From Chloroflexota bacterium (lineage in GTDB: Bacteria > Chloroflexota > UBA11872 > VXOZ01), in assembly GCA_963662335.2 (NCBI GenBank), contig CAXXVD010000002.1, positions 704,001 to 768,000 on the forward strand: a stretch of 64,000 bases of DNA, given 5' to 3'. Of this stretch, positions 1,015 through 24,020 are shown in pieces. Each line of letters begins with the position of its first letter. The first letter of the stretch is position 1. The translations under genes and the position numbers were made by a program. A model generated the notes under the pieces. It did no database searches and had not been told where the DNA came from. It worked only from the letters and a program-made list of their open reading frames with translations.

Positions 1015-1334
1015 TGTGGCCTTGCCTCCATGCAGCCCGGGTACGCTCTTTGCGTCGCAGCGGTCTCGTTCAAACGTGCGCGGCGCACGCGCGGCAATCC
1101 GGTTGCGCGCCGCTTCCGCTCAAACCGGAGATTGCTCCATGCTCTCTAGTATGCGGGAGAAAGCTGGGAATTTCCTGAGATTCTGAGGGAAAACTGTGTA
1201 TTTGGGTGCTTAAGTCACGTCGCGTTGCACGCTTGACCGCCCAAAGCAGCGCGCTGCCCCAGGCAGGGAAGCGGCGCACTGTTCTTTCGCATTCTATCAT
1301 GCGGGCAACGGCGGGCGCAGGCCAGGCAACGCGG

Positions 1335-2597
1335 TCAAAGCTCGCGGGCGCCGATGTCGCTGCGGGAGTAGGCGTTCTCAAACGAGACGCGCGCGAGGTT
1401 GTCGTAGGCGCGGGCGCGGGCGTGGGGCACGTTGGCGGCTTGCCCGACGGTCAGCAACACCCGGCCGCCGGCGGTGACGACCGTGTCGTCTGACAAGGCG
1501 GTACCGGCGTGGAAGAGCAACGCGTCGTCATCCAGCGTATCCAGTCCCGCTATGGGATGGCCGGTGGTATAGGAACCGGGATAGCCGCCGGAAGCAAGCA
1601 CCACGCCGCAGGTAGCGGCCGGATCCCAGGTCACGTCCGTCTCCGCCAGCCTGCCATCCACCGCGGCCTGAAACACCGCAACCAGGTCGGCCTGCAAGCG
1701 CGGCAGGATGAGTTGCGCCTCCGGATCGCCGAAACGCACGTTGAACTCCACGATGCGCGGGCCGTCGTGGGTGAGCATCAGTTGCCCGTAGAGCACACCG
1801 GCGTAGGGGCGGCCTTCCTGCGCCATGAGCGTGATTGTGCGCGCCATGATGTCGTGGTGGATGTAGTCAAGGGTCTCCGGGTCCACGAACGGAGCCGGCG
1901 AATAGCCGCCCATGCCGCCGGTATTGGGGCCGGCATCGCCGTCGAACGCGCGCTTGTAGTCGCAGGCGGTGGCCAGCGGCGTGATGCGCGCGCCGTCGGC
2001 AAAGGCGAAGACCGAAATTTCCGTGCCGCGCAGGCACTCCTCGATGACGATGCGGTCGCCGGATGCGCCAAAGGCCCGGTCTGACATGATGGTGTCCAGC
2101 GCCCGCATAGCCTCCGCGCGCGAAGAGCAGACGAAGACGCCCTTGCCGGCGGTCAGGCCGTCGGGCTTGAGCACGATTTCCCGGTCCGGCGCTTGCTCGA
2201 TGTAGGCGGCCGCCGCGTTCCGCTCGTTGAAAATGGCAAAGCCGGCCGTGGGCAGGCCGTGCCGCCGCATGAACTCCTTGGCCCAGACCTTGCTCCACTC
2301 CAGTTTAGCCGCCGCCTGCGTGGGGCCGAATGCGCGCTGGCCGCAGGCTTGTAGTGCGTCAACTGCGCCGAGTGCCAGGGGGTCGTCTTGGGCCACCACC
2401 GTGAGGTCGATGGCGTTTTGCCGCACCCAGGCGACGAGAGAATCGATGTCGGTCGCCGCAATGGGCACGTTCTCTCCCAGAGCCGCCGTGCCGGCGTTAC
2501 CGGGGGCAACGAAGAGGGTCGGCTGGAGGGGACTCTGGGCGCATTTCCAGGCAATGGCGTGCTCACGTCCGCCCCCGCCGACAATCAGAATGCGCAT
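1335..2597 (-). CDS. purD: phosphoribosylamine--glycine ligase
   Basis: MRILIVGGGGREHAIAW, KPDGLTAGKGV, DYKRAFDGDAGPNTGGMG, EFNVRFGDPEAQ, TAGGRVL. Confidence 0.97.
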   Translation of the reverse strand: MRILIVGGGGREHAIAWKCAQSPLQPTLFVAPGNAGTAALGENVPIAATDIDSLVAWVRQNAIDLTVVAQDDPLALGAVDALQACGQRAFGPTQAAAKLEWSKVWAKEFMRRHGLPTAGFAIFNERNAAAAYIEQAPDREIVLKPDGLTAGKGVFVCSSRAEAMRALDTIMSDRAFGASGDRIVIEECLRGTEISVFAFADGARITPLATACDYKRAFDGDAGPNTGGMGGYSPAPFVDPETLDYIHHDIMARTITLMAQEGRPYAGVLYGQLMLTHDGPRIVEFNVRFGDPEAQLILPRLQADLVAVFQAAVDGRLAETDVTWDPAATCGVVLASGGYPGSYTTGHPIAGLDTLDDDALLFHAGTALSDDTVVTAGGRVLLTVGQAANVPHARARAYDNLARVSFENAYSRSDIGAREL

Positions 2598-2604
2598 AAC
2601 CCGC

Positions 2605-2988
2605 TTACTCCAGCGCTAGCTGACCCGCGCGAAAGTCGATGGTCAAGCGCCTGCCGCGCAGGAAGTCCAGGCCCAAGACCCCGTCAATGGCGGCGCGGGA
2701 CGGCAGCGTGTGGCAGAGCACGGGCACGTTCGTTAGCGCTTTCCCCAACGCTTCGAGCCTATCAATCTTCAGCAAGGGCACTGAAATCGCACCGCTGCCA
2801 GTGATAATGCGCGTCCGTCTATCTGACTCGGCAGGCTCGTAGCCGAGATGGAGCGCAATTTGCCGGCTAATGACCGTCCTCGTAGCGCCGGTGTCTAACC
2901 CCAGACGGACGGTTTCAGGGCGTTTGCCAAGATAGAGAGTGGCAGGAACGACGATGAGACTGCCGCGCGGATCGAAGCTGTAGGTCAT
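2605..2988 (-). CDS. retropepsin-like (clan AA) aspartic protease, copy P3
   Basis: 127 aa from ATG 2988; LDTGAT catalytic motif, TGSG flap, DGVLGLDFL; ATGA overlap with upstream small gene. Confidence 0.9.
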   Translation of the reverse strand: MTYSFDPRGSLIVVPATLYLGKRPETVRLGLDTGATRTVISRQIALHLGYEPAESDRRTRIITGSGAISVPLLKIDRLEALGKALTNVPVLCHTLPSRAAIDGVLGLDFLRGRRLTIDFRAGQLALE

Positions 2989-3236
2989 AGGAGGAATTCT
3001 ACATCGTTCGGCAACTCGCCAAAGTACCACACGGCAACGTGACTCGGTTCACGGCCCTCCTCGCGCAGACGCCTCAGCGCGCCATAGACGGCGACCCGGT
3101 CCTCATCGTGGGCGAGCACAACGCCGCGTATCACCTCGCTCATGGGTGTCAGGTCCGGTTCGCCGATCAGCACCCACTCGCCGCCATAGGCCGCTTCCAT
3201 CTCGGCGTAGGTCATGACGGTTGCTTGTGTTTTCAT
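2985..3236 (-). CDS. small DUF5678-like protein, copy A5
   Basis: 83 aa, YGGEWVLI...GVVLAHD..R..VY...DVEFLL; GAGGAG RBS; one of five paralogs. Confidence 0.8.
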   Translation of the reverse strand: MKTQATVMTYAEMEAAYGGEWVLIGEPDLTPMSEVIRGVVLAHDEDRVAVYGALRRLREEGREPSHVAVWYFGELPNDVEFLL

Positions 3237-3252
3237 AGTATGGTCGCTCCTC

Positions 3253-3288
3253 GATTGGGTTTCTGCGCGGATTCAACGGGAAACTCAT
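3253..3288 (-). pseudogene. N-terminal stub of a deleted retropepsin gene
   Basis: ATGA-coupled to the A4 stop; MSFPLNPRRNPI resembles protease N-termini MTFRFNPRAHLI and MAYSFNPRDGLI, then runs straight into the RBS of A5. Confidence 0.6.
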
Positions 3289-3536
3289 AGTAGGAATTCA
3301 ACGTCATTCGGCCTCTCACCGATGAAGTGGACGGCAATATCGCTAGGCGCGCGTCCCTGCGCTTGCAGTTGCCACAGCGCCTCGTAGACGGCGATCCGGT
3401 CCTGGTCGTGCGCAAGCACGACGCCGCGTATTATCTGAAGCATCGGCGTCAAGTCTGGATCGCCAACCAGCACCCACTCGCGGTCAAAGGCCGCTTCCAT
3501 CTCGGCGTAGGTCATAACGGTTGCTTGCGTCTTCAT
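3285..3536 (-). CDS. small DUF5678-like protein, copy A4
   Basis: 83 aa from ATG 3536 (AAGGAG RBS): MKTQATVMTYAEMEAAFDREWVLV...DVEFLL. Confidence 0.8.
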   Translation of the reverse strand: MKTQATVMTYAEMEAAFDREWVLVGDPDLTPMLQIIRGVVLAHDQDRIAVYEALWQLQAQGRAPSDIAVHFIGERPNDVEFLL

Positions 3537-3667
3537 GGTATGGCCGCTCCTTATGCGCTCCCTGCGATAGTAGCAGAGATTCTGCTCTACTGTGGGCTTG
3601 GGTGGCCCACGAGCCAGCAATGGCCCCTGGATGCCGAACGCCGCTTTTGCAGCTGCCATAGGCCCAT

Positions 3668-4051
3668 TCAATCCAGCGAAAGTAGACCCGCGCGAAAGTC
3701 GATGGTCAAGCGGCCGCCACGTAGGAAATCTAACCCTAACACGCCGTCGATGGCAGTTTGCGAAGGGAGGGTGTGGCAGAGAATGCGCGCGTCGGTTGCT
3801 TCCTTGCCGAGCGCCTCGATCTTCTCAATCTCCAGCATGGGTACGGACAAAGCGCCGCTCCCCGTGAGGATTCGGGCCCGGTCGCGCGCACGAGACGGCT
3901 CGTAGCCCAAGGAAATTGCGACTGAACTGCTTATCAGCGTGCGCGTAGCGCCGGTGTCCAGCGCCAGTCGCAAGACCTCAACACGACCGCCGCGGTAGAG
4001 CCGGGCCGGAACGACGATGAGATGGGCGCGTGGATTGAAACGGAACGTCAT
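3668..4051 (-). CDS. retropepsin-like aspartic protease, copy P2
   Basis: 127 aa; LDTGAT, TGSG, DGVLGLDFL; ATGA overlap with A3. Confidence 0.9.
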   Translation of the reverse strand: MTFRFNPRAHLIVVPARLYRGGRVEVLRLALDTGATRTLISSSVAISLGYEPSRARDRARILTGSGALSVPMLEIEKIEALGKEATDARILCHTLPSQTAIDGVLGLDFLRGGRLTIDFRAGLLSLD

Positions 4052-4299
4052 AGGAGGAAATCAACATCATCCGGCGCCTCGCCAAAGTACCACACGGCGA
4101 ATTCATTGGGCGCAATTCCGGCTTCTTGCAAGCGCCACAGCGCCTCATACACGGCTTCCCGGTTCCCGTCATGGGCGAGCACGGCGCCGCTGATGATCTC
4201 CAGCATAGGAGTGAGATCCGGCTCGCCAACCAGCACCCACTCGCCGTCGTAGGCCGCTTCCATTTCGGCGTAGGTCATGACGGTTGCTTGGGTCTTCAT
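4048..4299 (-). CDS. small DUF5678-like protein, copy A3
   Basis: 83 aa from ATG 4299 (AAGGAG RBS): MKTQATVMTYAEMEAAYDGEWVLV...DVDFLL. Confidence 0.8.
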   Translation of the reverse strand: MKTQATVMTYAEMEAAYDGEWVLVGEPDLTPMLEIISGAVLAHDGNREAVYEALWRLQEAGIAPNEFAVWYFGEAPDDVDFLL

Positions 4300-4326
4300 G
4301 GTACGGTCGCTCCTTACTTCCTCAAC

Positions 4327-4433
4327 TAGGATTGCAGCGGTTGCTGCTGTCGCCCGTAACTTCCAATTGTAGTCCAAGAATTGTGTCGGGCACGATCATA
4401 GGGCCTATGCGGAGGGTTAGTGGTTTCAGTCAA
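4327..4433 (-). pseudogene. frameshifted, truncated retropepsin remnant
   Basis: TAG-A-TTG junction mirrors TAG-A-ATG of A1/P1. Fragments MIVPDTILGLQLEVTGD and TAATAAIL align to P1 IVVPVTLYGPQREVTVE and TGATATVV in different frames. Confidence 0.65.
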
Positions 4434-4434
4434 T

Positions 4435-4671
4435 CTACAACACGAAGTGCAAGTCTGCCGGCGGCGCGCCGATGTAGAGAATTGCGACGCGACTGAGATC
4501 GCGCTGAGCTGCTTCGCGGTACACTGCTTCCCGGCTCTTGCTGTGGGCCAACACGGTGCCGCGAATTATCCCGTTCATGTCGGTGAGTTCGGGGTCGTCG
4601 ATCAGCACCCACTCGCCGTCATAGGCCGCTTCCATCTCAGCGTAAGTCATCATGGTTGATTGCGTCTTCAT
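4435..4671 (-). CDS. small DUF5678-like protein, copy A2
   Basis: 78 aa: YDGEWVLIDDP...GTVLAHSKSREAVY...DLHFVL; AAGGAG RBS. Confidence 0.8.
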   Translation of the reverse strand: MKTQSTMMTYAEMEAAYDGEWVLIDDPELTDMNGIIRGTVLAHSKSREAVYREAAQRDLSRVAILYIGAPPADLHFVL

Positions 4672-4745
4672 TCAATCGTGCTCCTTATGTCCTCGTTTGG
4701 ATGATAGCAGACAGTCCACCATTTGTGCGGCTGCCATTGGGCCAT

Positions 4746-5129
4746 TCAATCTAGCGAAAGTGCGCCTGCGCGAAAGTCGATGAGCAGCCTTCCCCCGCGC
4801 AGGAAATCCAATCCCAACACGCCGTCTATGGCAGTGCGAGGCGGTAGCGTATGGCACAGAATCGAAAAGTCGGATTCCGCTTTTCCCAAGGCGTGGACGC
4901 TCGCTAGGCTTACCTCCAGCACCGACTCTAGGCCGCTGCCAGTAGTTATCTCCGCCGGTGTTCCTTCCTCGTCTAGTTGGCATCCAACATATTCGAGCGC
5001 ACTGCGCTTGACTACTGTTGCGGTAGCTCCGGTGTCAAGAGCGAGTTCGACTGTTACTTCTCGTTGCGGCCCGTAGAGGGTGACAGGTACGACGATTAGG
5101 CCGTCGCGGGGGTTGAAAGAGTAGGCCAT
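4746..5129 (-). CDS. retropepsin-like aspartic protease, copy P1
   Basis: 127 aa; LDTGAT, TGSG, DGVLGLDFL. Confidence 0.9.
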   Translation of the reverse strand: MAYSFNPRDGLIVVPVTLYGPQREVTVELALDTGATATVVKRSALEYVGCQLDEEGTPAEITTGSGLESVLEVSLASVHALGKAESDFSILCHTLPPRTAIDGVLGLDFLRGGRLLIDFRAGALSLD

Positions 5130-5130
5130 T

Positions 5131-5367
5131 CTACAAGAGAAAGTCTACGTCTGTCGGGCGGGCGCCCATGTAGAGAATGGCCGCCCGCTTTTGGCTGCGC
5201 CTCATTGCTTCGCGGTACACGGCATCCTGGCTCTTGCTATGGAAGAGCACCGTGCCTCGGCGCACCTCATTCATCGCCGAAAGCTCGGGTTCGCCAATCA
5301 GTACCCACTCGCCGTCGTAGGCGGCTTCCATCTCAGCGTAGGTCATTACGGCCGTTTCTGTCGCCAT
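5131..5367 (-). CDS. small DUF5678-like protein, copy A1
   Basis: 78 aa from ATG 5367 with AAGGAGG RBS: MATETAVMTYAEMEAAYDGEWVLI...DVDFLL. Confidence 0.8.
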   Translation of the reverse strand: MATETAVMTYAEMEAAYDGEWVLIGEPELSAMNEVRRGTVLFHSKSQDAVYREAMRRSQKRAAILYMGARPTDVDFLL

Positions 5368-5554
5368 GGCGGATTTCCTCCTTCGTGTAGTCTCGTTAAT
5401 GCTATCAGATAGGACGCGGCGCGTGCGCGCCGGCCGCCAAAATTGGAAAGCCGTGCGCTCCGGGCGCAGATTGACTGGTCTGTGCAACACTAATAGCGCT
5501 CGCCGGATTGAGCCTGGCACACACGCGCCGCGGCCACGGGACCGGCCGCCGCTT

Positions 5555-5563
5555 TGCTATACT
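5555..5563 (+). promoter_or_regulatory. extended -10 promoter element
   Basis: TGcTATACT about 100 bp upstream of the proX-like gene. Confidence 0.4.
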
Positions 5564-5664
5564 GGCCGGGTGGAATAGCCGCGCCCGTGCGGCCCGACGC
5601 CGGTCCAAGTAACGGAACACCGGGTCCCCCCGCACCGGCTATGAAGAACAAGAGGAGACGAACC

Positions 5665-6705
5665 ATGCGCATCCAAAGCAACTTACGTGTGCTACTGGCG
5701 GCAATCGCGGCCGTTGTCTTGGCCGTGGGCTGTATGCAGGCGCCGCCGCGGGACCAGGATGAGCCGGCGGCGCAGCCGGAAGCCATCATCTTCAACGACC
5801 TCAACTGGGATAGCGCCCGCGTGCAGAACCGCATCGCGCAGTACATCGTGGAAAAGGGCTACGGCTACGCCACCGGCGTGGTGGCCGGGCCGTCGGTGCC
5901 GTTGCTGGAGGGTCTCCGGCGGGGCGAGAGCCACGTGACGATGGAAGTCTGGCTGCCAAACCAGAGTGAGGCCTGGGAAGCGGCGGTGGCGGCGGGAGAA
6001 GCGGCGGCCGTGGGCGAGAGCCTGCAAGGCATCGCGCAGGCCACGTTCATGATCCCGGCGTATCTCCAGGAAGCATATCCGGAGCTAGACAGTGTTGAGG
6101 ACTTGAAAGAGGAGCAATATCGAGCACTGTTCGCCACTGCGGAGAGCGAGGGCAAGATTCGCCTGCTAACCTGTCCGCCCGGCTGGGCCTGCGAGGCCGT
6201 GAACGCGGCGAAAGTGGCGGGCTACGGGCTGAGCGACCACGTGCAGATCGTCGTGCCGGAATCCGATGCGGCATTGAACGATGAGGTGTTTGCCCGCTAC
6301 GCGGCCGGCGAACCGTGGCTTGGCTACCTTTCCGGTGAAATGCCCGCCGCGCTCAAGTTGGACATGGTCGCGCTGCAAGAACCGCCCTACAGCGACGAGT
6401 GCTGGGCCTCGACCAAGGCCTGCGCGTATGAGGATACGACGCTGGTGATTGGGGTCGGCGCCGCCCTGCTTAGCGACGCGCCGGACGTGGTGGCCGTGCT
6501 GCAAAACTGGGACCTGAGCATCGAGCGCTACCGCGCCGTGGCGGTCTGGCAGATCGACAACGAGGCCAGTGTGGAGGAGACCGCTCTCTGGTGGCTGCAA
6601 AACAACGGTGACGTTTGGCGCGAATGGGTCACGGCGGAAGCGGCAACCGCCATCCAGGCCGCCTTGGACGCCGGCGAGCGCGCGGACGGCTGGCCGGCGG
6701 AGTAG
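5665..6705 (+). CDS. glycine betaine/proline ABC transporter substrate-binding lipoprotein (ProX/OpuAC family)
   Basis: lipobox LAVGC; DLNWDSARVQN, MEVWLPN, CPPGWAC; AGGAG RBS before ATG 5665. Confidence 0.88.
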   Translation: MRIQSNLRVLLAAIAAVVLAVGCMQAPPRDQDEPAAQPEAIIFNDLNWDSARVQNRIAQYIVEKGYGYATGVVAGPSVPLLEGLRRGESHVTMEVWLPNQSEAWEAAVAAGEAAAVGESLQGIAQATFMIPAYLQEAYPELDSVEDLKEEQYRALFATAESEGKIRLLTCPPGWACEAVNAAKVAGYGLSDHVQIVVPESDAALNDEVFARYAAGEPWLGYLSGEMPAALKLDMVALQEPPYSDECWASTKACAYEDTTLVIGVGAALLSDAPDVVAVLQNWDLSIERYRAVAVWQIDNEASVEETALWWLQNNGDVWREWVTAEAATAIQAALDAGERADGWPAE

Positions 6706-6797: not shown

Positions 6798-6842
6798 AGG
6801 GAATGACGTACAGTCTTGCCAGACCACAGGAGGGATAGCGAA

Positions 6843-8216
6843 ATGCGACAGCGTGTGACCCGACGAGGATTCTTGTATGGCGCGGCGCTGGTCGGCGGCG
6901 GCGCGCTGGCGGCGGCGTGCGGACAAGCGGCGCCGGCCGCCGAGCAGGCGGAGGCCGCCCCGGAGCAGGCCGACGCGCCCAAAGCCGAAACCGAAGCGCC
7001 CAGCGGCCCGCAAGGCGAGGCGCTCTACTGGCACCGCGGCTTCTTCGACTTCGAGCCGTGGGCCAAGGAGTTTGCGGAGCTGAACCCCGGCTTGACGCTC
7101 AACGCCGTGGGTGAAGCCGACCGCCTGAACAAATTCGTCGCGGCCGTGGCGGCGGGCAGCCCGCCCGACGCCGTGGACGTAGGCGACTGGCAGACCGTAG
7201 AGCTTGGCGTCACGGACATTTCGCAGCCGCTGAACAACTACTACAAGGCGTCCGGCGTGCTCAACCTCGCCGAGTTTTGGCCCAGCGTGCTCAGCTACCT
7301 CAACGACGCGCCCACGGGCAACATGTACGGCGCGCCCTACGCGCCCGACCTGCGCGTGATGTACATCCACGGGGACACCTATCTGGAAGTGGGACTTGAC
7401 CCGGAAAATCCCCCAACGAGTTGGGCCGACTTCGACACCGCCATCATCCAGACCACCAAGTTCGACGGCGAGACCCTGGTGCGCGCCGGCTGCCCGCCCT
7501 TCTGGGGCAGCGGCGGCACGGGCCTGTGGCTGCTGCTGCTGTGGCAGTTGGGCGGCGACGTGATGGCCGACGACTGGTCCGCGGTTACCATCAATAGCCA
7601 GGAAGCGGTGCGCGCGTTGGACTGGCTGAAGAACATCCACGAGGTGCAGGGCGGTTGGGACGCGATTGCGCAACTGCGCGGCGACGGCCTGCACCGCAAC
7701 AGCCACCTGGCCGAGGCGCGCGCCGTGCACTACTACGCCACCTTTGCCGAGCGCGGCCAGTGGTTCAAGGAGAACGCCCCGGACTTGAACTTCGGCTTCA
7801 CGCCGTGGCCCAAACCGGAAGGCGGCCTGGACGCCAACCTGGGCGGCAACCACACGGCCACGTTTGCCATCAACGCGCCGAACCCGGACGCGATGTTCGC
7901 CTATTTCGAGTACTTCTTGAGCGCCGACACCAACCTGCGCTTTGCCAAGCAGTACGACCGGGTGCCGGTGCGCGAGGCGACCACCTCCTCGCCGGATTAC
8001 ACGGAGAATGACCCGTTCCGCGAACTGATCGCCCAGCAGATGCCGTTCCGCCACTTCTACTATTCCGGGCCGGGCGGCACCGAGGCGCGCAGACACGCGG
8101 TGGGCTTCGTGCCGGACGTGATGGCGGGCACTATCACCGCGCCGGAGGCGCTGGCAGCCGCTGAAAAGTCAATCACGGAACTGCTGGCCGGCTGGAACGA
8201 ACGGCTGGGCCGGTAG
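6843..8216 (+). CDS. ABC transporter extracellular solute-binding lipoprotein, family 1
   Basis: TRRGFL twin-Arg, LAAACG lipobox, AAGSPPD, GLDPENPPTSW. Confidence 0.88.
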   Translation: MRQRVTRRGFLYGAALVGGGALAAACGQAAPAAEQAEAAPEQADAPKAETEAPSGPQGEALYWHRGFFDFEPWAKEFAELNPGLTLNAVGEADRLNKFVAAVAAGSPPDAVDVGDWQTVELGVTDISQPLNNYYKASGVLNLAEFWPSVLSYLNDAPTGNMYGAPYAPDLRVMYIHGDTYLEVGLDPENPPTSWADFDTAIIQTTKFDGETLVRAGCPPFWGSGGTGLWLLLLWQLGGDVMADDWSAVTINSQEAVRALDWLKNIHEVQGGWDAIAQLRGDGLHRNSHLAEARAVHYYATFAERGQWFKENAPDLNFGFTPWPKPEGGLDANLGGNHTATFAINAPNPDAMFAYFEYFLSADTNLRFAKQYDRVPVREATTSSPDYTENDPFRELIAQQMPFRHFYYSGPGGTEARRHAVGFVPDVMAGTITAPEALAAAEKSITELLAGWNERLGR

Positions 8217-13240: not shown

Positions 13241-14122
13241 ATGAGCCGGCGAGCGTTGCGCAAGCAGCTAATCGTGGCCATCGAGGCGGGGGACATGTCC
13301 CGTGTGGCCGAAATCGCCGCAATTGATGCCGGTATCGTCAACGCGGCGAATGCCCACGGCCACGTGCCGTTGGGCGCGGCCATCGGCACGGGCTGCCTGG
13401 AGCGCGTGAAGTTGCTTGTTGCCCTGGGCGCGGATCCGCGCCATGCCTACCACGGGCGGACTCTGCTGGACGCGGCGGCGTATGGCGGCCACGCGGACAT
13501 TCTCCGGTATCTCATTGCAATCGGCCTCCGGCCTACTATCCAACACGCCGCGGCCATTGGCGACATTCCCTTGCTGGAGCGGCTGCTCGGCGCAACGCCG
13601 GCGCTGCGCGAGCCGGCGGCGGCCGGCGGCCGCTGGCGGCTCGCGCCGCTGCACGCGGCGGCAATAGGGGGCAGCCGGGCCGCCGTAGCGTACTTGCTGG
13701 CGCGCGGCGTGCCCGTTGACGCGGAGAACCACAACGGCCACACCGCGTTGGCTCTCTGCGTGGAGCATCCAACGGCGGAAGTCCGCGCGGCCATTGCGCA
13801 ACTGCTGCTTGCCGGCGGCGCGGACGCCAATGCCAAAGGCGGTCATCACAGCGGTACGGTGCTCCACCGGGCAGTCGTAAACGGTGACTCTGACGTGGCG
13901 CGCCTGCTGCTGGAACACGGGGCTGACCCAGACCGCCAAGATTGGTCGGGCAAGACGCCGCTCCACCATGCGGTTGCCAGGAATCGCCACCTGGTTGCGC
14001 TGTTGCTGGCGCACGCGCCGGACCTGGCGTTGCAGTCCCGCGACGGAGAGACGGCCGCGCAGTACGCGCGGCGCTTGCGCAAGCGGGCGAGCGTGCGCTT
14101 GCTGGAAGAGGCGCGCGCCTGA
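13241..14122 (+). CDS. ankyrin repeat protein
   Basis: repeated PLH.AA / GTVLHRAV / GKTPLHHAV and LLL..GAD.N motifs. Confidence 0.92.
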   Translation: MSRRALRKQLIVAIEAGDMSRVAEIAAIDAGIVNAANAHGHVPLGAAIGTGCLERVKLLVALGADPRHAYHGRTLLDAAAYGGHADILRYLIAIGLRPTIQHAAAIGDIPLLERLLGATPALREPAAAGGRWRLAPLHAAAIGGSRAAVAYLLARGVPVDAENHNGHTALALCVEHPTAEVRAAIAQLLLAGGADANAKGGHHSGTVLHRAVVNGDSDVARLLLEHGADPDRQDWSGKTPLHHAVARNRHLVALLLAHAPDLALQSRDGETAAQYARRLRKRASVRLLEEARA

Positions 14123-21413: not shown

Positions 21414-21552
21414 TGTGCTGGACAAACGGCGTAAGCCTGAGAATTCCTTGCCTGATTGGAGGTTAGATGCGTAGCTAACGCCTAAGGGGTGTGCAAAGAG
21501 CCGTATGGTAGAATAGTACTATCAAAGCGTGTATTGGCAAGGGGATAGCATC

Positions 21553-22017
21553 ATGGAGCACGACGCCAGAAGCGTGGCGAACGAATTGCTTCGCCGAGCC
21601 AAAGACGACGGCAGCCCGATAACCCACTTGAAGGTCATGAAGTTGGTCTACTTCTGCCATGCGTGGATGCTGGGCCTCTATCATGAACCGCTGCAATTTC
21701 AACCGGTTGAAGCATGGCGGTACGGCCCAGTGGTGCGAGACGTGTACCGCAGTCTACGGCGGTATGGCGGCGAGCCGATCAACCGCCCGATCAGCATTGC
21801 GGATGAAGAGTACACCCCTACCCAGAAGGATCTCATGGATCAAGTCTGGGAAGTCTACGGCAAATACACCGCCAGACAGTTGTCCGCCATAACCCATGCT
21901 CCTGGGACGCCATGGCACCAGGTCTGGCATCAATGGGGAAAGAGCGCCGTCATACCCGATCCTATGATTGAGGACTATTACGCAGACCTCTATGAGCAAT
22001 CGACAAGAGAGCCATGA
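21553..22017 (+). CDS. Panacea (DUF4065/SocA/GepA-like) antitoxin
   Basis: SVANELL, ITHLKVMKLVYFCHAW, EAWRYGPVV, LSAITHAPGTPW. Confidence 0.9.
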   Translation: MEHDARSVANELLRRAKDDGSPITHLKVMKLVYFCHAWMLGLYHEPLQFQPVEAWRYGPVVRDVYRSLRRYGGEPINRPISIADEEYTPTQKDLMDQVWEVYGKYTARQLSAITHAPGTPWHQVWHQWGKSAVIPDPMIEDYYADLYEQSTREP

Positions 22018-22376
22018 GCAGACAGGTCCCGGATGCGCGGCAGCCGCCAACGGAAACCGACGAGCCTCGCGCGGAAGAGGATTCCTTTGGTAGAGGTTCG
22101 ATCGAGGAAAGACTGGAAGCCGGCGAATTCCGGCGCTCGGAGAGACTGAGAGACGCGCTAAACGACGGCATCGTCTACGTCGCGCTCGTAGCGCCGTACT
22201 TCCTCGCAATAATCGGCGCAGTGCTCATGGTTGTGATGCTGTGGCATTACATTGGCCGTGAAGAATGGGCGTGGATGACGCCGCAGCAAGTTGACAAGGT
22301 GGAAGCGGTGTTCGGCGGCGGCATTCTGTCGGCGCTCTTCATCATGCTTAGAGACTATGTTGGTCGGAGAAAGTAG
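22014..22376 (+). CDS. two-TM membrane protein, putative Panacea-cognate toxin
   Basis: ATGA overlap with the Panacea gene; charged N-terminus followed by two hydrophobic segments. Confidence 0.7.
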   Translation: MSRQVPDARQPPTETDEPRAEEDSFGRGSIEERLEAGEFRRSERLRDALNDGIVYVALVAPYFLAIIGAVLMVVMLWHYIGREEWAWMTPQQVDKVEAVFGGGILSALFIMLRDYVGRRK

Positions 22377-22542
22377 CCCGCGGGCGTTAACTACCATGGC
22401 CAGCGCTCTGGTTCTTGCTTGCTTCTGCTAGCGGCTGAATCCTCATATCGGTATTGTCTTTAGAAGCGTCCCATCGTTCGGGTGTTGCTTGCGTTCAATT
22501 GGCCCTTGATGTCTGAGGTGACAATCATATGTGAGGTACATC

Positions 22543-22767
22543 ATGGGTGAAGTGCCCACGTATAGAGAAATCCAGGAATGCGCTGCTCAAGAGCTTTGCA
22601 TTAAACTATCCTCTGTCAAGACATGCTGCATTGCGAAGGTAATGCGTGAGTTGGGTCTACCCATGCGAAGCGCTTGGAATTCTAGTCCAGACAGAGATGC
22701 TTTAAGGTGCCCACCCCGCTACATTGAGGCGATAAGGAGCTGCATCGTAGCTCGGCTCGGGTCGTGA
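22543..22767 (+). CDS. small hypothetical protein (TY.EIQ / KTC.IA / CPP motif family)
   Basis: PTYREIQECAAQELCIKLSSVKTCCIAKVMRELGLPMRSAWN...RCPPRYIEAI; GAGG RBS. Confidence 0.6.
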   Translation: MGEVPTYREIQECAAQELCIKLSSVKTCCIAKVMRELGLPMRSAWNSSPDRDALRCPPRYIEAIRSCIVARLGS

Positions 22768-22976
22768 AGTCGACACATAGTAGTGTTTACGGTGTGCCTT
22801 CTTGGAGACATTCTTGGAACTCGAATGACTTACTGCTCAAACTCAAAGCAATAGATCGGGAATTCGAGTAGTAACTAACAGGTAATTGTTGTACTTTAAC
22901 TTGAAAAATGACACAAAATGTGGTATAAGGTGTGCAAGAGTATAAGTCGAGAGTAACAACTCCAAAGTGAGGCGAT

Positions 22977-24020
22977 TTGGTGGTACGAAACGTACAGTCC
23001 CTTCTTCGTCGACCAGTGACTGCCGCCATTCTTTCTGCCGATGCTGTCCATGGCGCGCTGGAGCGGCCTTTCCGCAAGCCGGCAATCGCTGAAGGCACTG
23101 GTACCGGTATCGTCAAAATCGAAGGTCTTACTCCTGCGGCTGAGGCGCCCGAGGTTCAGCAGTACATCCGCGCCGGTGCTTTGCAGTTCTGGGTAGCAGG
23201 CACGTTTGCGAACAATTGGCTTAGCAACCTTGATTTCAATTCGCTGCCGGCTAATCTGATCGACTATTACCAACGCGCAGGCACGCGCGGCGAGTATCGG
23301 GGCTTAGCAGGAGCGGAGGCGGTATGGGGGACGATTCCGCACTCTATACGCATGGCTGGGCCGGGAGCGCTGCAGGAATTTCGCAGCGGACGCGACTGGA
23401 GCCACATTGTGCCGCGGAGCCTGGGAGGGAGTGATAGCGCCAGCAACGGCATCTTCGAAGAGAGGAGTATCAACCAGGCCAGAGGCGCAGCGACGATGAC
23501 GAGCGAGGAGATTGGCCTGGCGCGGCAGGCGCTGCAAACTGAGGCAGTTCGCCATGCGGTAACGCAAACAGCTTCGGTCATGGTTTCTGCGGCCCTCGCT
23601 GCAGCCGTGGTAGAGGGCGTTTTCGCCCTAATGGAGGAAGGCTTACGCTTCTACGATGGAGAGATAAGCAGGGCCGAAATGCATTCGCGGGTGTGGAAGC
23701 GTTTAAGAAAGCGAGTTGCGCTCGCTGTTGTCATTTCGGGGCTTGTCGCAGGAATGGCAATTGTCTTTCCTTGGTTCACGCCGATATTAGGCGCTTTGGC
23801 GATACCAATGGCCGTAGCAAGCTTCGTTTTGTTGGGACATCGATTCTATAGCTTGAGCATGGAATGGAAGCAGAGAATGGGACTTGAGCCGGTTTTGACA
23901 GCTTGGCATCAAACCAAGGATATTCCTGATAGGGCATGGCAAGAGGCAAAGATTGTTTCGATCGAGACATGGCAAGGCGCAAATGGACTTTCAAAGCGGA
24001 CAGTGGAGTGGGTTGGATGA
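22977..24020 (+). CDS. hypothetical protein with HNH-like motif and C-terminal TM hairpin
   Basis: DWSHIVPRSLGGSDSASNGIFEERSINQARG; hydrophobic segment near residues 247-287; start uncertain. Confidence 0.65.
   Translation: MVVRNVQSLLRRPVTAAILSADAVHGALERPFRKPAIAEGTGTGIVKIEGLTPAAEAPEVQQYIRAGALQFWVAGTFANNWLSNLDFNSLPANLIDYYQRAGTRGEYRGLAGAEAVWGTIPHSIRMAGPGALQEFRSGRDWSHIVPRSLGGSDSASNGIFEERSINQARGAATMTSEEIGLARQALQTEAVRHAVTQTASVMVSAALAAAVVEGVFALMEEGLRFYDGEISRAEMHSRVWKRLRKRVALAVVISGLVAGMAIVFPWFTPILGALAIPMAVASFVLLGHRFYSLSMEWKQRMGLEPVLTAWHQTKDIPDRAWQEAKIVSIETWQGANGLSKRTVEWVG

Follow-up and report, generated by a model that had tools for sequence, protein, structure and literature searches.

Organization of the gene array

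The window analysed here is a 64,000-nucleotide (nt) stretch of the genome of a Chloroflexota bacterium (contig CAXXVD010000002.1, positions 704,001 to 768,000), and near one end it contains a tandem array in which genes for small acidic proteins are coupled to genes for retropepsin-like aspartic proteases. The array occupies positions 2605–5367 on the minus strand (coordinates are those of the whole window) and consists of five paralogous small-protein genes (A1–A5, encoding 78 or 83 amino acids (aa)) and three paralogous protease genes (P1–P3, each encoding 127 aa) in the order A1-P1-A2-A3-P2-A4-A5-P3. A1 (5131–5367), which encodes a 78-aa protein with an isoelectric point (pI) of 5.02, is coupled to P1 (4746–5129) through a TAG-A-ATG junction, and A3 (4048–4299) and A5 (2985–3236), both encoding 83-aa proteins, share an ATGA overlap with P2 (3668–4051) and P3 (2605–2988), respectively. 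The other two small-protein genes, A2 (4435–4671; 78 aa) and A4 (3285–3536; 83 aa), are intact orphans without a following protease gene. The eight genes, with their order, coordinates and overlaps, are those given in an initial annotation of this DNA, and the toxin-antitoxin-like layout that it described, with small, adjacent, co-directional genes joined by ATGA overlaps or TAG-A-ATG, is borne out.

One feature that the initial annotation missed lies directly behind A4. The stop codon of A4 overlaps an ATG in the same ATGA arrangement as in the intact pairs, and this ATG opens a 24-nt protease remnant (3265–3288, minus strand) of the codons for MSFPLNPR, resembling the protease starts MSFPFNPRG and MSFPFDPRG of two related loci (L007 and L005, respectively; related loci are denoted by L numbers). 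Beyond these codons the sequence continues out of frame in the leader of A5, and the deletion extends up to a point some 20 nt ahead of the ribosome-binding site of A5. Because a start of this kind follows the A4 stop codon, A4 was once paired with a fourth protease gene, the body of which was deleted.

The stop codon of P3 is located 7 nt before the start of purD (1335–2597), which lies directly downstream on the same strand. No terminator-like site was found in the region 1200–5700, so co-transcription of the array and purD is possible, and a promoter scan yielded two promoter-like sites, no more than in shuffled sequences; for this phylum both scans are uninformative. Upstream of A1, in the intergenic region that separates it from the divergently oriented OpuAC gene, a 20-nt inverted repeat (5412–5431 and 5516–5535; 85% complementary, 84 nt apart) could be a regulatory, operator-like site.

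An alignment of A1–A5 contains 31 invariant columns, and a 5-residue indel divides the 78-aa proteins A1 and A2 from the 83-aa proteins A3–A5, in agreement with the two subtypes recognized previously. Identities to A1 are 65, 54, 51 and 56% for A2, A3, A4 and A5, respectively. P1–P3 share 61 invariant columns, including intact DTGAT, TGSG and DGVLGLDFL motifs, and are 56% (P1-P2 and P1-P3) or 66% (P2-P3) identical. At the DNA level, the copies are 64–78% identical over 218–300 nt. In all eight paralogue comparisons, including those of the orphans (A2 against A1, 0.23; A4 against A3, 0.21), the ratio of nonsynonymous to synonymous substitution rates (dN/dS) was 0.18–0.30, with synonymous divergence (dS) of 0.7–2.4, and these values indicate that the array genes are old and under selection, being neither fresh duplicates nor chance open reading frames (ORFs). 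Recent tandem duplication was considered and ruled out by the same dS values and by the grouping of the copies with orthologues from other species (see below). The GC content at third codon positions (GC3) is 0.67–0.70 in the array genes and 0.80–0.89 in the flanking genes. No membrane- or signal-like segment was detected in the array proteins by Kyte-Doolittle hydropathy (maximum 19-residue mean, 1.09), as the initial annotation had it.

The protease

All three proteases exceed the gathering cut-offs of the Pfam families Asp_protease_2 (24.3 bits) and gag-asp_proteas (28.2 bits), with scores of 51.8 and 47.9 bits for P3, 40.6 and 42.6 bits for P2, and 36.0 and 37.2 bits for P1, respectively (E-values 1e-8 to 1e-13), and are thus clan AA retropepsin-like aspartic proteases, as the initial annotation had proposed. 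The DTGAT loop, the TGSG flap and the LGLDFL block are present in each of them. None reaches the curated cut-off of any NCBIfam clan AA subfamily, the best score being 35.6 bits for P3 with TIGR02281 (clan_AA_DTGA), for which the cut-off is 57.95 bits.

In an alignment of 43 intact proteases from the array and related loci, from which five broken copies, the L012 copy (near-identical to that of L011) and the C-terminally extended first copy of L005 were excluded, D32 is invariant, conservation is 90% or higher at T33 and G34, and the LLGLDFL block is kept. With a profile of these 43 relatives, the nearest solved structures were the retropepsin domain of Ddi1 (4z2z and 2i1a; E 6.5e-6) and rickettsial ApRick (5c9d; E 1e-4), and Ddi2 and ASPRV1 were matched as well. 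The family is large: among 8000 candidates scored, 2539 clusters matched at E ≤1e-5, nearly all of exactly 127 aa and named merely 'predicted aspartyl protease' or 'retropepsin-like aspartic protease' in their sources. Judged from its sequence, P is a cytoplasmic single-domain retropepsin-like aspartic protease with an intact catalytic motif.

The small partner protein

A1–A5 gave no match above threshold in Pfam, NCBIfam or PADLOC. Their 69 close homologues are all named hypothetical proteins of Chloroflexi metagenome-assembled genomes, and the wider superfamily comprises 576 representatives at E ≤0.001 in a library clustered at 50%. The consensus, MxxVLTxxEIExRFDxEWVLxxDPE...GxVLxHSKDRDEVY...PxDxxxxL, spans about 75 residues. 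Among the partners of the 43 aligned proteases, all 43 are acidic (pI 4.05–6.06) and 36 have a hydrophobic C-terminal tripeptide at a fixed position; those of Armatimonadota extend three residues further, with tails similar to ...VLLNIWA.

A structural model of A3, built from a 58-row alignment with A3 as its first row, has a mean predicted local distance difference test (pLDDT) score of 91.9 and a predicted template modelling score of 0.79, and its elements follow the order strand-helix-strand-strand-helix-strand. The last residue block of A3 alone has a pLDDT of 64, as against 89–97 in the first seven 10-residue blocks. No structural analogue of the model was found by Foldseek at E ≤0.001 in the PDB or among viral models, a sequence-profile search of the PDB returned spurious nanobody matches only, and the ESM Atlas returned just 'hypothetical protein' clusters. 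By the model, then, A is a small acidic protein with a predicted fold not seen before.

The name 'DUF5678-like', which the initial annotation had given to the small proteins, holds just as a statement of distant homology. A comparison of A with a canonical DUF5678 protein by hhalign gave a probability of 66% and an E-value of 5.7e-5, and among 30 representatives of the A superfamily, 3 exceed the Pfam cut-off for DUF5678 and 8 more match at E <0.01. The proteins of the window do not reach that cut-off, however: only A2 matches PF18929 at all, with 12.6 bits (E 0.12) against the 23.2 bits required. The core of A, an EWV strand, a G-x-V strand and a helix, aligns with the canonical member, whereas an 11-residue hairpin extension and the conserved C-terminal tail are additions relative to the 49-position Pfam model. 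We know of no function for DUF5678.

Several other features of the A family were observed. The histidine at residue 43 of A3 (window positions approximately 4171–4173) is invariant, as are E20 and W21; it forms part of an H-S-x-D-R-D motif outside the predicted protease interface and may belong to a second binding or sensing surface. Five metagenome clusters (P0103 and P0226–P0229; 183–188 aa) combine an N-terminal DUF6331 domain with a C-terminal A domain, and in three A relatives (P0102, P0138 and P0221) the N-terminus contains a RelB-like or Phd piece. All of these proteins may be genuine fusions, or they may reflect merged gene calls. A reading of A as the precursor of a ribosomally synthesized and post-translationally modified peptide was rejected, the sole hint being a sub-threshold FxSxx-COOH match (E 0.04) in what is otherwise a confidently folded domain.

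Conservation of the gene pair in other genomes

In a scan of a genome collection with a nine-row A alignment, restricted to A proteins carrying [YF][DG]GEWVL[VI][GDA], 54 loci were identified: 15 in Chloroflexota, 17 in Cyanobacteria, 9 in Armatimonadota, 5 in Binatia, 4 in Deltaproteobacteria/Syntrophaceae, 2 in Planctomycetota, 1 in Bryobacteraceae and one further locus. All ORFs of these loci were scanned with hidden Markov models of A and P. A protease gene directly follows A in 41 of the 54 loci (41 of the 52 assessable), of which 36 have a full-length and 5 a broken copy (L008, L029, L030, L031 and L054), and the loci come from at least seven phyla. The usual overlap between the two genes is 4 nt, and most of the 41 pairs show the same coupling as those in the array. 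Within this sample, which was ascertained through A, every P match (48 ORFs representing 47 genes) is preceded by an A gene. The co-occurrence and translational coupling of the two families therefore extend well beyond the window.

Among the 13 loci without a following protease gene, two (L015 and L024) stop at a contig end and one (L016) keeps a C-terminal protease remnant; in L014, an ATPase gene takes the place of the protease gene (see below); in L040 and L053, A runs straight into the HD-domain gene that usually follows P, and the others contain solitary A genes. In total, an intact A stands without a following P in 10 loci, and in an eleventh (L014) the body of A is kept with an altered C-terminus. 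The decay apparent in these sequences is one-sided, P being broken or lost and A remaining intact, and the orphans A2 and A4 of the array are best read as antitoxin-like survivors of protease loss. No fused A-P protein was present among the seven A matches of greater length, which constitutes weak evidence only; these comprise five DUF6331-A fusions, one hydrolase fusion and one 191-aa protein without a Pfam domain.

History of the array at the purD site

The solute-binding-protein gene of the window (6816–8216) has a match in all 15 Chloroflexota loci; purD is present in 14 and the OpuAC gene in 5, and the locus without purD (L015) ends at its A gene, before the purD position. The 7-nt spacing between the protease stop codon and the purD start recurs in most related loci. 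The number of pairs at this site varies: a single pair was found in L001, L003, L006–L009 and L011–L013 (with a broken protease gene in L008), two pairs in L002, L005 and L010, and two pairs with an orphan A in L004. The array of the window is the largest set among the Chloroflexota loci at this site.

In trees of A and of P, which included two outgroup pairs and left out the rows from other phyla, both families split into a type-78 lineage (A1, A2 and P1) and a type-83 lineage (A3–A5, P2 and P3), with Shimodaira-Hasegawa-like approximate likelihood ratio test values of 87–96. An A gene is always followed by a P gene of its own type (5 of 5 for type-78 and 12 of 12 for type-83), and in a tree built by a quick method the copies of the window are closer to orthologues from other species than to one another. 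This pattern points to old lineages of A and P that have diverged together.

In L014, the protease slot is occupied (positions 4275–6338 of that locus) by a gene for a 688-aa ABC ATPase resembling OLD, AriA and GajA (PADLOC Old, E 2e-24; AriA, E 5e-22). Because this ATPase gene stands in place of the protease gene, the purD site appears to behave as a small variable defence spot.

Predicted complex of the two proteins

A 2:2 complex was modelled from two P chains (a 43-row alignment with P2 as its first row) and two A chains as the partner (the 43 cognate rows, A3 first). The interface score ipSAE was 0.91 in three of three runs, whereas the highest-scoring of three controls gave 0.01. The mark applied to this score is passed by 58 of 80 solved complexes and by 2 of 110 mismatched pairs, and it is a rough guide for the present model, with its own alignments and 2:2 design. 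The runs share at least 98% of their contacts, and the pLDDT of the partner is at least 90. To our knowledge, there is no solved complex of a retropepsin with a protein partner that could explain the model by memory.

The predicted interface comprises residues 24, 27, 29, 31–35, 47–48, 51, 54–55, 58, 65–71 and 75–83 of A, and residues 1, 3, 9–11, 15–17, 22–28, 30, D32, 34–37, 39, 43, 46–47, 59–65 (the flap region), 79–82, 91, 95, 97–100, 102 and 104 of P. The contacts with the lowest predicted error connect A residues 65–70 with P residues 24–26. Residue 81 of the first A copy touches T36 of the second P copy, so that one A contacts both P chains, which fits a P dimer (contacts between the P chains themselves lie outside the scoring of the model). 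The C-terminal residues 75–83 of A are modelled against the catalytic Asp32, residues 34–37 and the flap. The tail that is uncertain in the model of free A is thus placed across the catalytic loops of the P dimer in the model of the complex, which is where the initial annotation had expected a C-terminal strand to act. This in silico evidence supports binding of A to P with the tail of A at the active site.

Among all 83 × 127 residue pairs, the strongest covariation between the two proteins was found for A67 and P25, which are also the top predicted contact, and the mean mutual information with average product correction of 22 variable listed contacts, 0.073, was reached by 20 of 5000 random sets, although relatedness among the rows inflates such scores. 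Variability is higher at the interface positions of A than at its other positions (1.84 versus 1.45 bits), whereas P shows no such difference (1.82 versus 1.83 bits). The description of the module as 'diversifying' in the initial annotation is consequently not borne out over whole genes: the dN/dS and dS values are those of old genes under purifying selection, the lineages are common to other species, and greater variability is confined to the predicted interface of A.

Genomic neighbourhoods of related loci

In the 39 non-Chloroflexota loci, a scan of the two nearest predicted genes on either flank of the module (145 proteins) revealed domains related to toxin-antitoxin systems, restriction or mobile elements in 19 loci. 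They comprise ParE (L035 and L043), PIN (L036, L051 and L053), RHH (L018 and L054), Gp49/HTH_37 (L019), the HI1420 antidote (L022 and L033), HigB together with DUF5678 (L041), XisH/XisI (L027 and L033), Uma2 (L049 and L050) and DUF6036 (L016). Also in this set are a type I specificity subunit (L035), an MmeI-type enzyme (L047), an integrase with a patatin (L017), an integrase fragment (L042) and a transposase (L028). In L035, the pair sits between the ParE gene and the type I specificity subunit gene. The other 20 loci have housekeeping neighbours, with a recurring order of 3'-phosphoadenosine 5'-phosphosulfate (PAPS) reductase, module, HD-domain protein and GTPase genes in Armatimonadota. In L041, a canonical DUF5678 gene (34–264; 33.4 bits) lies directly upstream of the A-P pair and a gene for a HigB-like toxin lies downstream; this DUF5678 gene has no match in PADLOC. 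In tblastn searches, the P protein of L018 gave one weak match, to a Methylobacterium megaplasmid (E 7e-4).

Comparison with known systems

The closest listed relative of the module is PDC-M08, a two-gene candidate in PADLOC. The PDC entries are 145 phage-defence candidates selected by 'guilt-by-embedding', their homologues having been found inside BREX, DISARM or type I restriction systems, as stated in the available part of a preprint by Payne et al. (bioRxiv 10.1101/2024.01.29.577857); its main text, as far as available, contains no mention of PDC-M08, and no paper on PDC-M08 was found. The PDC-M08B profile is matched over nearly its whole length by P1 (E 1.1e-13), P2 (7.5e-11) and P3 (1.5e-10), and also by all six of the tested proteases that come from other phyla; it has no curated PADLOC cut-off. 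The PDC-M08A profile is weakly matched by 2 of 58 and 7 of 150 wider A relatives (best E 4.5e-6). The B profiles have 93–128 positions and the A profile 86 positions, about the size of A, and one related locus (L035) lies beside a type I specificity gene. The multi-pair arrays and the stable site beside purD are, on the other hand, features of the present locus. Since PDC-M08 is itself a candidate, membership says nothing about function. The claim that the module is undescribed accordingly needs qualification: no characterised function for the pair was found in the literature, but a small protein with a retropepsin is already listed by PADLOC, and P matches its B component. The initial interpretation is largely right, and the module is not wholly unlisted.

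Several properties are shared with type II toxin-antitoxin systems, namely a small acidic upstream gene product whose gene overlaps that of a downstream enzyme, a predicted tight complex in which the flexible C-terminal tail of the first protein lies over the active site of the second, and the occurrence of cognate pairs in paralogous copies, of orphan genes resembling those of antitoxins and of many toxin-antitoxin genes nearby. The tails of the antitoxins MazE and Phd likewise cover the active sites of their toxins. A literature search found no retropepsin reported as the toxin of a toxin-antitoxin system or as a defence or anti-phage effector, and none tied to conflict systems; a paper that brings up retropepsins together with toxin-antitoxin systems lists an aspartic protease of about 100 aa near Sulfolobales type III CRISPR loci. 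The effector class and the partner fold are without characterised precedent among toxin-antitoxin-like candidate-defence pairs.

Few bacterial retropepsins have been characterised; those encountered in the accessible portion of the literature are APRc, the Rlo enzymes and RimB. P belongs to the same fold family as these and Ddi1 and has the D-T/S-G catalytic loop in common with them. It differs from Ddi1 in having no ubiquitin-like or UBA domain and from APRc and the secreted Rlo enzymes in having no membrane or export segment. RimB of Pseudomonas, as described in the accessible part of one report, is a small cytoplasmic retropepsin-like protease that works with partners in a RimABK complex (PMC11957791), and in being small, cytoplasmic and partner-dependent it resembles P; no rimA or rimK neighbour was found in the window or in the scanned loci, however, and the A family has no counterpart in the Ddi1, APRc, RimB or Rlo systems. 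The term DUF5678 occurs in a paper that, by its title, concerns a plant-pathogen interaction.

Proposed role of the module and alternative explanations

The explanation that we favour, and regard as somewhat likely on balance, is that the array consists of type II toxin-antitoxin-like modules, in each of which a partner protein would keep a retropepsin effector inactive by plugging the active site with its tail. Being toxin-antitoxin-like, such modules would also be candidates for phage defence. Each module forms a two-gene operon with A first and translationally coupled to P. P would dimerise, as retropepsins do. Two A molecules would dock on the P dimer, strand 65–71 of A pairing with strand 24–26 of P, and the otherwise disordered hydrophobic tail of A (residues 75–83; ...P-x-D-V-D-F-L-L-COOH) would cover the catalytic loop and the flap and hold the protease inactive, like an antitoxin tail or a propeptide acting in trans. 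If A were lost, degraded or displaced, whatever the trigger, P would be freed to cut cellular or phage proteins as its substrates, and toxicity may follow. The plug model makes a definite claim, namely that loss of the nine C-terminal residues of A would unleash the protease. At about 210 residues in total, the pair is compact, and its complex is defined and confidently predicted.

A number of observations weigh against this explanation. The complex score of 0.91 is a measure of model confidence, and since the predictor was given the alignments from which the covariation was computed, the two lines of evidence are not independent. The one-sided decay is subject to bias because the loci were found through A. 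None of the five A proteins of the window matches the PDC-M08A profile at E ≤1, and no HTH, RHH, AbrB or Phd domain was found in A by Pfam or NCBIfam, nor any solved-structure match at E ≤0.001, so that A shows no sign of the DNA-binding domain present in most type II antitoxins. The proteases are not uniformly basic (pI >7 in 25 of 43), and some have non-canonical catalytic motifs (DTA in L026, L045 and L046, DTD in L025 and DLG in L052). With respect to mobility, tblastn searches with A3 and P2 against phage and plasmid collections, and with the A protein of L018 against plasmids, gave no matches. Finally, the module has a long history of vertical inheritance in two phyla, rather than obvious mobility, in which respect it also differs from type II toxin-antitoxin systems: the 15 Chloroflexota loci share a single syntenic site between the solute-binding-protein gene and purD, beside housekeeping genes, and in Armatimonadota the module lies between a PAPS-reductase gene and an HD-domain gene.

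Such retention is also what would be expected if P were a housekeeping regulatory protease and A its adaptor, chaperone or trans-acting propeptide, with no toxicity and no role in conflict. The constancy of the site in all 15 Chloroflexota loci, with its 7-nt distance to purD and no terminator found, the conserved PAPS-reductase/module/HD-domain context in Armatimonadota and the purifying selection on all paralogues all suit this possibility, and characterised bacterial retropepsins act with partner proteins, according to the accessible part of the RimB report (PMC11957791). The predicted tight binding suits an adaptor as well as an inhibitor. The neighbours differ between the phyla, however, so that no common pathway emerges, and close relatives have from zero to three pairs at one site, with P often broken or deleted where A stays, which would be unusual for a housekeeping enzyme. 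Moreover, 19 of the 39 non-Chloroflexota loci lie among toxin-antitoxin, restriction or mobile genes, and the GC3 of the array genes is below that of the flanking genes. We therefore consider a housekeeping role rather unlikely; if it were true, the module would be a new protease-adaptor pair all the same. A further alternative is that A, or a longer form of it, is a substrate or precursor that is matured or destroyed by P, the modelled complex being an enzyme-product state. The position of the A tail at the catalytic loop is compatible with it, as is the hydrophobic tripeptide that closes 36 of the 43 A proteins at a fixed position and resembles the end of a P-side cleavage product. However, the tail stops at a natural stop codon, with no scissile bond downstream, A folds confidently as a globular domain (pLDDT 91.9) and is not a leader-core peptide, A-P fusions number zero among the seven longer matches (weak evidence), and the A1/P1 and A3/P2 junctions differ in frame, so that this alternative seems improbable to us. 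A retrovirus-style polyprotein made by programmed frameshifting was rejected on account of the same differing frame offsets, and no canonical slippery heptamer was seen.

That the array is what remains of the gag-protease part of a retroelement, decayed or domesticated and without present function, is suggested by the presence of gag-asp_proteas among the best Pfam names. Its low dN/dS of 0.18–0.30, its invariant catalytic Asp and the conservation of the pair in at least seven phyla make this highly improbable, as does the lack of a reverse transcriptase or integrase gene adjoining the array; in the 39 scanned loci, reverse transcriptase was found in none and a phage-type integrase or transposase in three (L017, L042 and L028).

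A broader form of the toxin-antitoxin-like explanation, which we put forward tentatively, holds that the pairs form a large cross-phylum family of conflict modules, in which a retropepsin effector is held by a partner of new fold that inserts its hydrophobic C-terminus into the cleft like a bound cleavage product, and that arrays store non-interchangeable protease/plug pairs together with spare plugs. If this were true, retropepsins would join the bacterial toxins and abortive-infection effectors, and the module would be a prokaryotic relative of the logic by which retrovirus and Ddi1 proteases are gated. Confirmation of the toxin-antitoxin-like explanation itself would provide a mechanism for the PADLOC candidate PDC-M08, add a protease class to bacterial conflict systems and supply a natural design of a protein inhibitor for retropepsins.

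Other features of the window

A gene on the plus strand (21529–22017) encodes an antitoxin-like protein with a SocA/Panacea domain (E 1.3e-19) and overlaps by 4 nt a 120-aa ORF (22014–22376) that has no family match. Together (21529–22376), the two are likely a second toxin-antitoxin pair in the window, as judged from domain content and gene overlap. The stretch 22001–24000 is low in GC (down to 0.54) and contains a further low-GC3 ORF at 22896–23273. Ankyrin-repeat proteins are unusual for bacteria, and one is encoded on the plus strand at 13241–14122 (Ank_2, E 8.6e-36), among ABC-transporter and metabolic genes.

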